Both the position numbers and the translations under genes were made by a program. 62,993 nucleotides of DNA from a virus (Duplodnaviria > Caudoviricetes): positions 1 to 62,993 of IMG/VR virus record IMGVR_UViG_3300046171_000113; one strand, 5' to 3'. Below are positions 26,310 through 57,584 of the stretch, one piece after another (position 1 is the first letter of the stretch; each line of letters starts with the position of its first letter). The notes beneath the pieces are model-generated. The model saw nothing but the letters and a program-made list of their open reading frames with translations, ran no database searches and had not been told where the DNA came from.

Positions 26310-27560
26310 CTATGCTCCAGGGAAAGGATCTGGAGGCCTGTTTCTTATTTCTTCTAATATTTTTCTTTGATCATCACTTAAAATTTCAAATCTTTTATCT
26401 ATCTCTGCATCTTTTTCTTTTTGTGTACTACCTTTTGGTGTTGGTTCTTCTACAAATGTATCAAGATTTATATCTTCAAACTCATAACCATCTTTTGTTT
26501 TTCTAAATCTTCTAATTGTACCTGTTTTTAAATCATAGAAAACTTTTCCTACATCTTTATCTTTAGGTTTATTTAACATTCCTTCTGAAGAACGATCCAT
26601 ATCTGTGCCATTTAAAAATCCAGCAGCTTGAGATCCAAATTTTTCTTGCATCTTAATACTTATTTGCTCATCCTCATATTTTTTTCTATTTGCTCCTTTA
26701 ACAGTATCGTCCCCGTAATACTTTTCTGCATAATATGTTGCTGGTCTTTTTTCATCTGCATCTAATTGTTTATCAATCATTCTCTCTCTAAACTCTTGGT
26801 CATCTCTAATTTTTTCCAGTTCAAATTCTTCTTTTCTCTTAATTTGTTCTAGTTCAAAAGCTCTACCTTCTCTAATTAATCTCTCTTCGTATTCTTTTCT
26901 TTCTTGCTCATCTAATTTTTGATAAGCTCTAGCTTTATCTGCCACTGCTTCATTATAATCTCTTTTGTCTTGATCTTTTAAATTTTCATAAGCTCTTTGA
27001 TCATTTAAAAATTTAACTTGATTTTCTTGATCCATATCTTGTAGATTTAATTTAAATCTTTTATCTTCTGATTTTTCCTCTGCTCCTAAAGCAAGTTTAG
27101 TTGCTGCCATTCTAAGATCTCTATTATATTTAGCTTTTGCATCAGCACCTTTTATTAATTGTTTAGTAGCTGGCTGTAATCTATTTACTGCATCTGCAAA
27201 ACTAGTAGCTCCTGCCACACTTGGTCCAGCAGTAAGTAAAAAACTTGTTAAAGGATCCATACCACCATATTCACCAGCCCCTGCTCTAAGTTCTTCTATG
27301 TATTCAGCTTGAGTTTTTGGTGTACCAACTAATGCATCTATGTCCATATTTTCATATACCATAGGTTTAAATTCACTAACTGTTGGTAATGGATTAGCAA
27401 GATCTATACCTTCTTCTGTAACCCCTGATGCACCTTTCATTTGTGCAGTGCTACCTGGTAAATAACCATCTTGAGCTTCTATTCTATCTACGATACCAGT
27501 CATAATACCGTTACCGACATTACCACCTTTTCTAAACATTGGTCTTTTAAAAGTTCTCAT
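26310..27560 (-). CDS. Putative ejection protein, charged coiled coil
   Basis: Position and composition. Confidence 0.6.
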   Translation of the reverse strand: MRTFKRPMFRKGGNVGNGIMTGIVDRIEAQDGYLPGSTAQMKGASGVTEEGIDLANPLPTVSEFKPMVYENMDIDALVGTPKTQAEYIEELRAGAGEYGGMDPLTSFLLTAGPSVAGATSFADAVNRLQPATKQLIKGADAKAKYNRDLRMAATKLALGAEEKSEDKRFKLNLQDMDQENQVKFLNDQRAYENLKDQDKRDYNEAVADKARAYQKLDEQERKEYEERLIREGRAFELEQIKRKEEFELEKIRDDQEFRERMIDKQLDADEKRPATYYAEKYYGDDTVKGANRKKYEDEQISIKMQEKFGSQAAGFLNGTDMDRSSEGMLNKPKDKDVGKVFYDLKTGTIRRFRKTKDGYEFEDINLDTFVEEPTPKGSTQKEKDAEIDKRFEILSDDQRKILEEIRNRPPDPFPGA

Positions 27561-27561
27561 A

Positions 27562-28473
27562 TTAACTATTCAATACGCCTGGTTGATTAAATGCTCTGTA
27601 AATACCAGCTAACGTTCCACCAGCTCCTATTGCTGTCATCATAGGATTTGGACTAGGTGCAGTAACTTGAGTTTGTTGACCTGGGTATCCAGCAATCAAA
27701 CTTGTTACACCTGTTCCATAAGCATTAGCCGCTGTTAGTGGTTGTTGTAATTGTTGTTGAGCCAACTGTTGTTGTGCTGCTAATTGTGCTTGTACTTGTG
27801 CTTGATTTTGTGCACCAAGAGTAGATAATGCTCCTACATCTTGACCTAAGAAAGCTTGTTGCTGACTACCTAATCCAGTTGCAGCCGCACCTAAACCTAA
27901 TTGTTGATTAGCCAAAGTCTGTTGATTTTGAAATGCTTGTTGTGCAGCCGTTTGAGCCTGACCAAAACCTTGTTGTAATAATTGTGCCTGTAATGCTGCT
28001 CGGTTCCTGTCGCTTGTTGATTGATATTCTGATCTCATAACACCTTCACGACCTCCACCAAGAACACCTTGGTTAACTGCTTGAGCTGCAATATTTGGAA
28101 TGCCTTTTGCTGCTTGTGTATCAAATTCTGTTAACGTTGCGTTAATGACATCCTGTTGGTAAGGAGACATAAATTGTTGGTAAGCTTGTGGACCAGAAAA
28201 CTGACCAGCTTGGCCAGCTAAAACCCCAGCTTGAGTTTGTGCTGCTTGTGCTTGATTTAAAAAAGGTTGATAAGCACCAATACCTTGAGTTGCTAATTTT
28301 TGAGCCTGAGCCTGTAATGGATCTTGACCTGCTGTAAATTGTGGACCAAATACTTTTGAAAGATCAGCTGTTTTATATTGACCTGCTGCAGTTCCTAAAT
28401 TACCTAAGTAAGTTTTACCTGCTGCTTCTATAAATTCTGGTGGTAATACTCTTGTTGTTGTTACTTCAGCCAT
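27562..28473 (-). CDS. Q/A/G-rich DNA-transfer (ejection) protein
   Basis: MSPYQQDV, GVLGGGR; hydrophobic C-terminus. Confidence 0.65.
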   Translation of the reverse strand: MAEVTTTRVLPPEFIEAAGKTYLGNLGTAAGQYKTADLSKVFGPQFTAGQDPLQAQAQKLATQGIGAYQPFLNQAQAAQTQAGVLAGQAGQFSGPQAYQQFMSPYQQDVINATLTEFDTQAAKGIPNIAAQAVNQGVLGGGREGVMRSEYQSTSDRNRAALQAQLLQQGFGQAQTAAQQAFQNQQTLANQQLGLGAAATGLGSQQQAFLGQDVGALSTLGAQNQAQVQAQLAAQQQLAQQQLQQPLTAANAYGTGVTSLIAGYPGQQTQVTAPSPNPMMTAIGAGGTLAGIYRAFNQPGVLNS

Positions 28474-56842: not shown

Positions 56843-56843
56843 T

Positions 56844-57584
56844 TTACAATCCTAGTATTGCTGCTAGACCGCCTGATTGTTTTTCATCTCTATCGATAAC
56901 ACCTTTACCAATTAAGATATCTTTTTGTGTGATTTGTCCGTCACCAGATAGATCAGGGAAAGATCCACCAGCTAAAGTAATTCTAGTTTTATCATCTTCG
57001 ACTAATTCTTTAACAACTTCCATTCCAGGATCTCTACTAGCTGTACCCATTCTTAATTCATAAAATTCTTTTAGTTCATCTAATGAATTTGGCTTACGTC
57101 CTTTTTCTCTAATAAATTCTTTTACAACTTCTTCAATTCTAACTTCAGGTCTTATAGCAGCCATATCACTCATAGCTTCTCTTCTGAAACTATCAAAGTC
57201 CATAGGCTCTAAGCCTTGTTCTAACATATCGAATCTGTATTTTTGATATTCGTCTTCTAAAGGATCTAATTCTGCGCTTGCCATTTGCATGATGCCTGAA
57301 TCCTGAGCCCTGACTTGTTCACCCATAGGCACGCCTTGGTCTTTCATTAATTCAATTGTATCTAAGTCTTCTTCCTGAAACTCTTCAACTTCATCACCGT
57401 TTGCATAAAAATTTCTCATAATTCCTCCGTTAGCCTCTTTGGATCTTCCAGAATCTTTTAGTCTAAAAGTATCCATTTCAATAATATTTATATTATTTCT
57501 TTTTATGTAATCAGTCAAGGACTCTCCTGGTTCTACTCCTACACCACTTTCGTAAGCATCAATTACATCTTCATAATATTCCAT
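56844..57584 (-). CDS. Acidic protein with repeated xxGG motifs and an EF-hand-like loop
   Basis: DLSGDGQITQKD; GGLAAILGL C-terminus. Confidence 0.7.
   Translation of the reverse strand: MEYYEDVIDAYESGVGVEPGESLTDYIKRNNINIIEMDTFRLKDSGRSKEANGGIMRNFYANGDEVEEFQEEDLDTIELMKDQGVPMGEQVRAQDSGIMQMASAELDPLEDEYQKYRFDMLEQGLEPMDFDSFRREAMSDMAAIRPEVRIEEVVKEFIREKGRKPNSLDELKEFYELRMGTASRDPGMEVVKELVEDDKTRITLAGGSFPDLSGDGQITQKDILIGKGVIDRDEKQSGGLAAILGL

Follow-up and report, generated by a model that had tools for sequence, protein, structure and literature searches.

The virus record IMGVR_UViG_3300046171_000113, whose whole stretch of 62,993 bases is the window analysed here, contains the complete genome, about 57.83 kb long, of a podovirus-type phage. 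Its late proteins share a short peptide motif, R-x5-G-[G/S/T], in which exactly five residues separate an arginine from a glycine followed by glycine, serine or threonine. The motif is real, specific for the x5 spacing, conserved and portable, it favours protein termini and module junctions, its carriers are expressed late, and it is restricted to one clade of marine phages. Nine proteins encoded around the portal gene and in the ejection block capture the signal in the window. We favour, with somewhat less than even confidence, the reading that it is a portable recognition motif by which internal and ejection proteins are assembled into the virion.

Enrichment of the motif at a single spacing

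Copies were counted on 94 proteins (18,012 residues), an uncurated set of greedily chosen longest open reading frames (ORFs) of at least 50 residues from which wrap-around duplicates had been removed. The pattern R.{5}G[GST] occurs 27 times in this set, against 11.4 +/- 3.4 copies expected from within-protein shuffles, and 0 of 1000 shuffles reached 27. Enrichment over non-late proteins had been set as a check when the motif was first noticed in a sequence-only reading of this DNA, and it is found: the 43 late minus-strand proteins hold 25 copies where 8.2 are expected, and the other 51 proteins hold 2 where 3.2 are expected. The nine carriers named in that reading have 16 copies against 2.0 expected; once they are set aside, the remaining late proteins show no enrichment (9 copies against 6.3), so the nine capture the signal. 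When the spacing in R.{k}G[GST] was varied from k=0 to k=10 over all window proteins, the counts were 11, 11, 12, 17, 15, 27, 16, 14, 10, 12 and 11, with x5 as the only peak. Codons at the R and G positions match genome-wide usage and synonymous codons vary, so the motif is selected at the protein level and a DNA-level origin, as a repeat or ribosome-binding site, is ruled out.

Some pattern matches lie outside the nine carriers. Those in the large terminase, the portal, the glycosyltransferase and a 1331-residue ejection-block protein fall in evenly conserved regions or are poorly kept, and from these alignments they are treated as chance. For example, the two matches in the portal are kept in 75 of 75 orthologs with a flanking identity of 0.99 and are also present in the relative HTVC023P, and the single match in the 1331-residue protein (residue 390), kept in 29 of 48 orthologs, is chance or uncertain. 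A match in the scaffold-like protein lies in a uniformly conserved region and is likewise found in the motif-poor HTVC023P. Two alternative cores, [F/Y]-x-x-G-G-hydrophobic and [K/R]-x(1-3)-[F/Y]-x-x-G-[GST], are unenriched in the window and in HTVC023P. A profile anchored on every G-G proved too noisy and was dropped, Gly-rich fibre proteins dominating HTVC023P.

Nine otherwise unrelated carriers

Every motif instance listed in the sequence-only reading is present in the gene to which it was assigned. The carriers are:

56844..57584, minus strand: carrier 1, an acidic modular protein of 246 residues directly downstream of the large terminase gene
54977..56842, minus strand: carrier 2, a 621-residue protein without assigned function, between carrier 1 and the portal gene
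51275..51604, minus strand: carrier 3, a basic protein of 109 residues with tandem units YKVGG-RVSKMGGG ... YKKGGS
51030..51275, minus strand: carrier 4, an 81-residue protein with RKYFSKGS at 51153-51176 (residue 34)
50806..51027, minus strand: carrier 5, a 73-residue protein with N-terminal RKFLSKGT at 50983-51006 (residue 8)
50594..50791, minus strand: carrier 6, a basic 65-residue protein (phrog_27331) with RKKAANGG at 50636-50659 (residue 45), then LIV
50319..50594, minus strand: carrier 7, a 91-residue DUF5872-like protein (weak match) with RKKASMGG at 50328-50351 (residue 82), then LI and the stop
28473..29492, minus strand: carrier 8, a 339-residue protein, first of the ejection block and adjoining the phrog_4287 gene at 27562-28473
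28476..28667, minus strand: C-terminal tape-measure-type module of carrier 8 (residues 276-339), R-x-x-R-E-T-G-G-F-V-P-V-G ... P-A-M-L-S-x-N-E-F-V ... L-Y-D-x-M-K
26310..27560, minus strand: carrier 9, a 416-residue ejection-block protein with a near-invariant leader, residues 1-26 (27483-27560)

The carriers are otherwise unrelated, as had been claimed: they show no global relation, and a permissive all-against-all BLAST returned only four local similarities with an expect value (E) below 0.01. One joins 50319 to 50594 through a basic region and a common motif tail, one joins 26310 to 28473 through a 31-residue LPGSTAxMKGA segment, and the other two are low-complexity K/E-rich matches. The shared segment of 26310 (residues 22-52, 27405-27497) and 28473 (residues 74-103, 29184-29273) reads L-P-G-S-T-A-x-M-K-G-A-x-x-V-T-x-x-G-I, with 52% identity over 31 residues, and is distinct from R-x5-G-G. 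In addition, near-identical motif copies occur in the neighbouring small genes 50319/50594 and 50806/51030.

Conservation in relatives had also been set as a check, and the terminal copies are indeed kept there. The leader of 26310 has RPMFRKGG at 27522-27545 (residue 6) and a variant, RIEAQDGY, at 27462-27485 (residue 26); the motif is kept in 65 of 66 orthologs at a whole-protein identity of 0.29, and R6, P7, M8, F9, R10, G12, G18 and I19 are invariant among 41 leaders of the family. Carrier 28473 has a leader copy at 29442-29465 (residue 10, RQLYGLGS), internal copies at 28938-28961 (residue 178) and 28722-28745 (residue 250), a copy at 28644-28667 (residue 276) that opens the C-terminal module, and the related element MAVGG. 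Its leader copy is found in 53 of 53 orthologs at a whole-protein identity of 0.45, and some variants of the family have tandem units. In 54977, the N-terminal leader copy (56774-56797, residue 16, REKFADGS) is kept in eight of the nine orthologs that align over at least half the length, at a whole-protein identity of 0.35, and positional analogues without BLAST similarity to 54977 have the same leader; its other copy (56483-56506, residue 113, REEFGEGT) is followed by a helix-turn-helix (HTH)-like stretch.

Carrier 56844 has copies at 57423-57446 (residue 47, RSKEANGG), 57393-57416 (residue 57, the G-D variant RNFYANGD), 56961-56984 (residue 201, RITLAGGS) and 56868-56891 (residue 232, RDEKQSGG), the last of which opens a conserved C-terminal tail, GGLAAILGL. 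Identity to its 17 distinct orthologs is 23-87%; every one of them has G-G-[L/I]-x-x-[I/L/V]-L at its end, and 15 continue with G-[V/L/A]; R, or in a few cases K, stands six residues ahead of G-G, with R at the aligned position in 12 of the 17.

The small proteins after the portal are more fluid. In 51275 a strict copy (51524-51547, residue 20, RVSKMGGG) is followed by a variant (51488-51511, residue 32, RKDMESGY); the copy is kept in 22 of 29 orthologs, and the first unit of relatives reads RFRFNKGG, RQALMNGG or RLALKVGG. The motif of 51030 is found in 16 of 17 orthologs, and the module of about 40 residues behind it also occurs in relatives fused behind a 50319-family motif. In 50594 the motif is kept in 21 of 23 orthologs despite varying inner residues. 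Orthologs of 50319 take four forms, which stop before the motif, end with it, have an N-terminal copy instead (MRSYYSEGGL) or run from the motif into a 51030-type module; the motif lies near the same place in 15 of 22, and gp50 of the cultured relative HTVC027P has the N-terminal copy. Only one ortholog of 50806 was found in 80 portal loci, and HTVC027P has no counterpart gene.

Held-out relatives reproduce the motif and refine it

As the motif had been chosen from the window sequence itself, out-of-sample tests were made on 160 viral-contig loci, 80 centred on the portal gene and 80 on the 27562 homologue. Late-strand ORFs were used, those at least 50% identical to window proteins were removed and near-duplicates were collapsed, so that from 1,894 ORFs 226 divergent homologues were reduced to 134, and 297 ORFs of at least 60 residues with no hit were reduced to 199 (40,858 residues). 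The 199 late ORFs without a BLAST match to the window hold 125 copies at x5, against 19-49 at ten other spacings and 27.1 +/- 5.1 in shuffles (maximum 45 among 300). The 134 homologues less than 50% identical hold 167 copies at x5, against 33-66 at the other spacings and 42.2 +/- 6.6 in shuffles. Antisense ORFs of the same loci have no x5 peak (6 at x5). Altogether, 68 of the 199 no-hit ORFs have one to four copies each.

The 292 copies from these sets give a refined consensus, (G-G)-R-x-[G/N/M]-[F/Y]-A-x-G-[G/S/T]. The preference for F, Y, L or A at position +3 that had been noted in the window thus holds out of sample, with F in 28% and Y in 19% of copies at +3 and A in 25% at +4; position +7 is G in 53%, S in 23% and T in 22%. 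The location of the carriers around the portal and in the ejection block, with copies that are often terminal, in tandem or between modules, is confirmed in the window and in relatives. Among the 125 copies of the no-hit ORFs, 27 lie in the first 25 residues and 28 in the last 25, where 14.7 are expected per end. Terminal copies are kept while the remaining protein falls to 21-45% identity, and the conserved blocks around them span 15-30 residues, which is longer than a typical protease site would be expected to be.

The motif moves between proteins. Non-homologous proteins at the same genomic position have a common C-terminal tail, R-x-K-x-A-S-G-G-L-P-x-I-L, or a common N-terminal leader; for example, gp41 of HTVC027P, which is non-homologous to 56844 at the same position, ends in the same kind of tail. 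Gains and losses of modules are bounded by motif copies. In 56844, a module of about 22 residues (56901-56966, residues 207-228), S-F-P-D-x-S-G-D-G-x-I-T-x-x-D-I-L, resembles what we take to be a single calcium-binding loop (EF-hand or dockerin-like). This module is bounded by two copies and is precisely missing between them in three relatives, and it is also found alone behind a motif copy in tiny ORFs after the portal (Lys-rich, 44-75 residues, at loci L010, L021, L074 and others). Gain and loss of modules at copies, together with a module alone behind a copy, mean that the motif behaves as the boundary of a portable cassette. Large positional analogues have up to four copies with polyprotein-like spacing.

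It had been suggested that the motif lets the phage tag arbitrary effectors for injection, a suggestion that the carriers do not support: Pfam assigns no family to 66 of the 68 out-of-sample carriers, the other two being one HTH_7 above and one DAHL below cutoff, and none has an enzyme domain. A database search with the leader of 26310, in which the 'longer' and 'shorter' length classes were left out, gave 498 proteins. By length, identity and lack of Pfam domains they look like a single family, the 120 matches listed all having 232-572 residues and no Pfam domain. HTH-like stretches were seen in 54977 (about residues 115-180, 56300-56500) and in a protein of locus L067 (residues 199-270), and one relative matches HTH_7 with 26.0 bits (cutoff 23.8) and has a weak similarity to sigma-70 region 3. 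The head could thus carry a protein that binds DNA or acts in transcription, in a phage for which the published gene lists include no RNA polymerase.

An innovation of HTVC027P-like pelagiphages

The window is a pelagiphage close to HTVC027P: a 12-kb query from its head region aligns over 75% of its length to this Pelagibacter phage, with 89% DNA identity. HTVC023P and 023Pt_psg01 are more distant relatives. In the 43 annotated late proteins of HTVC027P, the counts from x0 to x10 are 7, 6, 11, 11, 11, 25, 12, 10, 6, 7 and 7, with copies on gp41, gp42, gp44, gp47-50, gp82 and gp84. The description of the carriers as late proteins agrees with expression data, since the six checked (gp41, gp47, gp49, gp50, gp82 and gp84) are all classed 'Late' in Table S3 of PMC12753301. 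The ejection proteins of HTVC027P are only about 43% identical to their window counterparts.

The peak is absent elsewhere. In HTVC023P the motif is not enriched, x5 giving 19 copies and the neighbouring spacings 17-21, nor are refined forms of it, and only degenerate copies stand at equivalent places; the freshwater relative DSL-LC04 has no peak (4 at x5 in 22 late proteins); and coliphage SU10 has none in 18 late proteins (12 at x5, 13 at x6 and 16 at x7). The motif is thus an innovation of the marine HTVC027P-like sublineage. It is not described in the consulted parts of the literature on HTVC023P and HTVC027P, on tape-measure proteins or on ejection proteins.

A tape-measure-type module in an ejection-block carrier

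Matches of the 28473 C-terminal module fall in six PHROG families, all of which have the annotation 'tail length tape measure protein'. Among 40 module sequences, the matches are to phrog_23013 in 39, phrog_5448 in 37, phrog_4197 in 15, phrog_6090 in 13, phrog_934 in 9 and phrog_3547 in 4. They cover the G-G ... G-E-F-V element, and the result concerns the 28473 C-terminal module only. Searched as a profile, the module yields 6,596 representative clusters at E <= 0.001; nearly all of the 150 matches listed have the matching part at their C-terminal end. The crassvirus cargo protein 1 domain (PF25725) was considered as an alternative identity and rejected, with 3 of 40 module sequences matching at a best E of 0.044, under the gathering threshold, and an Atlas similarity of 0.83, below the useful level of 0.9. 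The carrier is not a tape-measure protein in the long-tail sense, as the portal and adaptor are of the SU10 podovirus type and the gene lies in the ejection block.

The module also leads to the lambda tape-measure protein gpH. Its homologue in DSL-LC04 (E 1e-16) matches phrog_24 at E 4.6e-4 over profile positions 919-979, and phrog_24 is the family of the C-terminal region of gpH (E 2e-56, positions 907-1056), so that 919-979 corresponds to about residues 712-772 of gpH. There gpH reads K-F-H-F-A-T-G-G-F ... G-E-F-V-F-T ... R-G-Y-A-T-G-G-Y, visibly the same arrangement as in the module, and its first element fits the consensus with K for R. The direct match of the module profile to gpH is not significant (E 0.16, rank 3 of 184 sequences), and the link to the glycine-rich region of gpH is transitive only, via DSL-LC04. 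The protein gpH loses a peptide of about 14 kDa from this glycine-rich region to give gpH* and gpHC, with the site unmapped and the catalyst unknown, and the unresolved N-terminal part of the fragment is placed at about residues 690-817 (PMC12617516). The module therefore lies inside the cleaved fragment and near the cut, not demonstrably at it. The T5 tape-measure protein pb2 is cut after R1127 (PMC10038345), where the residues that follow, A-E-G-G-M-M, fit a clade form of the motif, A-x-G-G-[I/M]-M. It has no strict R-x5-G-[GST] copy, and homology of the 28473 module to pb2 was rejected, none being detectable in profile and PHROG searches.

Gene layout and neighbouring genes

Positions 1 to about 5,160 of the window repeat 57,832-62,993 with small indels, at the dominant offsets 57,831 and 57,830 and at 57,825. 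A single genome of about 57.8 kb has thus been read beyond its starting point in the window, which could reflect a circular or permuted assembly or a slightly differing terminal redundancy. The head module (large terminase, portal, scaffold and capsid protein) is of the SU10 type. The late gene order, assembled from Pfam, PHROGs, Atlas and comparison with relatives, is, besides the carriers:

57584-59065, minus strand: large terminase, first of the late order
52377..54881, minus strand: portal protein of the SU10 type (PF23899 SU10_portal, phrog_1216)
50041-52405, minus strand: nine small ORFs, most of them basic, after the portal
49581-49814, minus strand: 77-residue ORF preceding GroES
49160, minus strand: GroES, between the 77-residue ORF and the scaffold-like gene
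48162..49142, minus strand: scaffold-like protein and candidate receptor, with an acidic N-terminus, a long helical region and a basic HTH-like C-terminus
47693 and 47042, minus strand: two proteins without assigned function, between the scaffold-like gene and the capsid gene
46111..47019, minus strand: major capsid protein and candidate receptor (PF25209, PF10124, phrog_371), without a motif copy
42153, minus strand: SU10-type adaptor, after the capsid gene and followed by fibre and tail genes
33107, minus strand: virion protein
30492, minus strand: glycosyltransferase
28473, 27562, 26310 and 22306, minus strand: ejection block, at the end of the late order
27562-28473, minus strand: DNA ejection protein (phrog_4287 'DNA ejection protein')
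22306..26301, minus strand: 1331-residue protein, last of the ejection block, whose HTVC027P homologue gp85 is annotated 'putative structural protein'

Several genes near these stand out. Among the small ORFs after the portal, a 93-residue DUF6321 protein (50041-50322, minus strand) has its PHROG matches only at the C-terminal ends of families far larger than itself (440-525 of 525 in one case), which means that this small domain exists elsewhere fused to larger phage proteins. Inside the structural region, six ORFs of about 180-200 residues lie opposite the late genes at 35122-39042 (plus strand); four have clear matches to 2-oxoglutarate (2OG)-Fe(II) oxygenase Pfam families, one a weak match and 37437-37973 none, and HTVC027P has three genes at this place, one annotated 2OG-Fe(II) oxygenase. 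In the ejection block of HTVC023P there is an extra gene of 152 residues (MN698239.1 53726-54184, gp80) for which the window has no counterpart. A figure legend of the HTVC023P-type pelagiphage preprint has a HlyC-type toxin-activating lysine-acyltransferase among its gene abbreviations, and gp80 may be the gene meant.

Among the replication genes, 12653-13027 (minus strand) encodes a 124-residue SET-domain protein (PF00856, E 5.6e-10), which by this match could be a protein lysine methyltransferase in a phage rich in small Lys-rich proteins. Two helicases appear to be split into adjacent ORFs, with N- and C-terminal halves of an SNF2-type enzyme and UvrD-type pieces (20645-21202 and 21301-22104, plus strand; 15998-16648 and 16860-17141, minus strand). 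HTVC027P has single genes for an SNF2-type helicase (gp87, 479 residues) and an ATP-dependent helicase (gp06), and the splits could stem from frameshifts, from errors in sequencing or from intervening elements. There is a LAGLIDADG-like ORF at 7423-7866.

Proteases and candidate receptors

The absence of a canonical prohead protease, noted before any search, stands. The only protease family that Pfam assigned among 82 of the 94 ORFs is an M15 endolysin-type peptidase, and PHROG searches of 44 late proteins gave no protease at all. In HTVC027P, gp34 has a 'Pdase_C33_assoc' match reported in PMC12753301; with 46 residues it is too small for a protease domain and was rejected as a C33-type protease. 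The capsid, portal and scaffold-like proteins, where the sites of a head-maturation protease would be sought, have no copy of the family type.

Among the candidate receptors, the scaffold-like protein 48162 occupies the position of the annotated scaffold of SU10, with weak hints from Atlas (nearest named cluster Phage-scaffold at 0.87, below the useful level) and Pfam (I_LWEQ, E 0.1). Sequence searches of the PDB with 48162, 47693, 47042, 29549 and 44934, and a further profile search, gave nothing significant, the best match being an eS4 KOW region at E 0.2. The predicted fold of 47693, which the sequence-only reading had named as a possible partner, has a mean predicted local distance difference test score (pLDDT) of 57.9, too low to search for similar folds. 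A monomer model of the C-terminal 115 residues of 28473 (mean pLDDT 56.3) shows the motif stretches as low-confidence coil. Complex prediction for the capsid protein with residues 1-45 of 26310, as one monomer pair, scored 0.02 where the mark is 0.32, a result that speaks neither for binding nor against it.

HTVC023P is 74% identical to the window in the capsid protein, 53% in the portal and 38% in the scaffold-like protein. Since the last two are less identical to their counterparts in a motif-poor phage, the fast-evolving scaffold-like protein or the portal may be a somewhat more attractive receptor than the capsid protein, although this is weak reasoning. A likeness to the capsid was also observed, in that the capsid N-terminus MAISRGQLVK (46990-47019) resembles the start of 28473, MAISRMQ...LVK (29433-29492). 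The likeness lies at the protein level, as the two genes use different synonymous codons and have unrelated DNA upstream; the capsid start is identical in 8 distinct ortholog N-termini and is one residue off in HTVC023P (MAISRSQ). The 28473 leader looks like a capsid N-arm with the motif inserted, and it may dock where the N-arm docks.

Discussion

How might a peptide of eight residues serve so many unrelated proteins? On the recognition reading, the short linear motif, which in many copies has G-G ahead of it and a hydrophobic residue behind, would mark virion-internal proteins, namely the ejection-block proteins, the two large variable terminase-portal proteins and the small basic proteins beside the portal gene. 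A conserved procapsid component would bind it during assembly of the head or ejectosome, with the scaffold-like protein, the portal vertex and the inner capsid surface as candidates. Any protein with a copy at an end or between modules would thereby be recruited, and several copies would add avidity. That the carriers are virion-internal is suggested by synteny, by the PHROG 'DNA ejection protein' gene that 28473 and 26310 flank, by the tape-measure-type module, by analogy with SU10 and by late expression. Binding by a partner, beyond mere cutting or a structural role, is favoured by the conserved blocks of 15-30 residues around terminal copies, the short and strongly conserved hydrophobic tails behind C-terminal ones, the occurrence of copies at either end and in multiples, and a head of the protease-free type in which no protease is detectable.

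Several points weigh against recognition. The analysis found no receptor, and the presence of the carriers in particles is something we infer; the pelagiphage literature consulted offers no virion proteome, 'proteom' and 'mass spectrometry' occurring zero times in the main text of bioRxiv 10.1101/2019.12.14.876532, and PMC9599517 likewise lacks 'ejection', 'internal virion' and 'portal'. HTVC023P has the same head genes, yet its motif is unenriched, so either the partner has co-evolved or assembly in general does not depend on the motif. Extended leaders differ from one carrier family to the next, with only the 8-residue core in common, and could point to different partners. Finally, the position at junctions and the link to a processed tape-measure region would fit a cleavage site equally well.

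Such a processing site, at which precursors or multi-module proteins would be cut during assembly as tape-measure proteins are, is the main alternative, which we nevertheless hold to be on the unlikely side. The cut would be made by a host protease, an unrecognised phage protein or autocatalysis, and terminal copies would be clipped propeptides, possibly removed after loading as in the load-then-clip route of T4. It would explain why copies stand at module junctions directly ahead of modules and why large analogues have polyprotein-like spacing with up to four copies; moreover, the copy at residue 276 of 28473 opens the module that leads transitively to the gpH region releasing the 14-kDa peptide (PMC12617516), and T5 pb2 is cut just ahead of a clade-like sequence. 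The title of a 1973 work cited in PMC10038345 reports host involvement, so that a phage protease may not be required. Against it stand the lack of a phage protease among the Pfam and PHROG matches, the capsid, portal and scaffold-like proteins without family-type copies, the 2-7 residues behind some C-terminal copies (GGLI-end; GGL-[A/P]-x-I-L-G-V-end), whose strong conservation would be odd if they were discarded, and conserved blocks that exceed the usual cleavage determinant. In addition, pb2 has no strict copy and is not detectably homologous, and in lambda the estimated cut is tens of residues away from the module, which belongs to the fragment that is cleaved off. Loading and processing may both be true together, as in T4.

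It is quite improbable, in our view, that the motif is instead a structural or post-ejection element, part of an ejected trans-envelope conduit or internal core in which the carriers co-assemble, where it would act as a turn or cap for module self-association or bind DNA, membrane or cell wall after ejection. Its sharing would then reflect co-assembly of the carriers with one another and not reading by a head component. Arginine and aromatic residues with glycine spacers are the composition of self-associating low-complexity regions. Consistent with such a role are the tandem units in Gly-rich, basic and probably disordered proteins, the low-confidence coil modelled over the copies of 28473, and the sharing of the module with tape-measure proteins, which form the conduit in long-tailed phages (PMC12617516). 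Loose stickiness would fit less well than specific recognition with a spacing fixed at x5 and with residue preferences at single positions, and neither the bias to both termini nor the family-specific leaders would be predicted. The remaining ideas are together very improbable. A mimic of the GroES mobile loop could recruit GroEL, the G-G with hydrophobic residues resembling the loop KTKGGLILG of the phage GroES and presumably those of bacterial GroES as well, and the six oxygenase-like paralogs, the glycosyltransferase or the SET-domain protein could have the motif as substrate. Both ideas fail on co-occurrence: GroES and several 2OG oxygenases are encoded by HTVC023P, and one 2OG oxygenase by DSL-LC04, two phages in which the motif peak is missing. 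Simple paralogy could account for the near-identical copies in neighbouring small genes, but along with composition and chance it is refuted by the within-protein shuffles, the spacing and antisense controls and the non-homologous carriers.

Known systems offer partial parallels. The T4 capsid targeting sequence is a short peptide common to unrelated internal proteins (IPI-III, Alt) that are packed into the head and injected, and the N-terminal copies on 26310, 28473, 54977, 50806 and HTVC027P gp50 resemble it. Unlike that signal, which is unrelated in sequence, the motif is also C-terminal, internal and tandem, with copies as frequent in the last 25 residues as in the first (28 and 27 of 125), and the window phage has a small SU10-type podovirus head, no T4-type core and no phage prohead protease. 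Encapsulin cargo-loading peptides are short terminal peptides that dock diverse cargo inside an HK97-fold shell with no protease; the likeness is a short terminal peptide on diverse proteins, capsid binding being putative here. The adenovirus protease, a viral cysteine protease, cuts at Gly-Gly sites on small basic core-protein precursors, and the likeness is to proteins that are small, very basic and DNA-associated and have G-G sites close to an end, whereas no cysteine protease is detectable in the window and the hydrophobic position differs. Lambda gpH, with K-F-H-F-A-T-G-G and R-G-Y-A-T-G-G on either side of G-E-F-V, and T5 pb2 are ejected, conduit-forming proteins; each of them, however, is the only such protein of its long-tailed phage and has just one or two copies, whereas the core motif is on at least nine proteins per genome and on scores of unrelated proteins across the clade. 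P22- and SU10-like phages also have blocks of rapidly diverging internal proteins that are still incorporated, and the window portal and adaptor are of the SU10 type: Sf6 gp16 assembles into P22 particles (PMC10461980), and SU10 gp20-24 are five ejection proteins in the head, not resolved in the map (PMC9509320). SU10 differs in having no x5 peak and no terminal copies on gp20-24, and a shared incorporation motif is not described in the consulted parts of the ejection-protein literature on these phages. Overall, the motif would seem to work like a capsid-targeting or cargo-loading signal that is related in sequence, at one place, to the glycine-rich region of tape-measure proteins.

A bolder synthesis, which we regard as unlikely, would trace the motif to tape-measure proteins, as an ancient ejectosome signal that addresses proteins to the DNA-delivery machinery and marks a host-made or autocatalytic cut. 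HTVC027P-like pelagiphages would have multiplied it into a plug-in system in which whatever module stands behind a copy is loaded into the head, trimmed and injected. If it were true, the injected proteome of the ocean's most abundant phage group would be readable from sequence, and the same element would explain the cleavage of lambda gpH.

The HTVC023P-type pelagiphages, described as podoviruses, are reported to be the most abundant known marine viral group (bioRxiv 10.1101/2019.12.14.876532), and almost none of their structural proteins has a known function. A mark for internal or injected proteins would define the injected proteome across hundreds of uncultured relatives, and it would help to explain the recruitment of ejection proteins by a podovirus head that has no protease, a step poorly understood even in P22- and SU10-like phages. 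The tape-measure link touches an old question, the site and catalyst of gpH cleavage (PMC12617516). As a small tag, the motif could also be used to bring foreign proteins into phage heads. These ideas are testable now, since both HTVC027P and its host HTCC1062 have been cultured and late expression of the carriers is strong.

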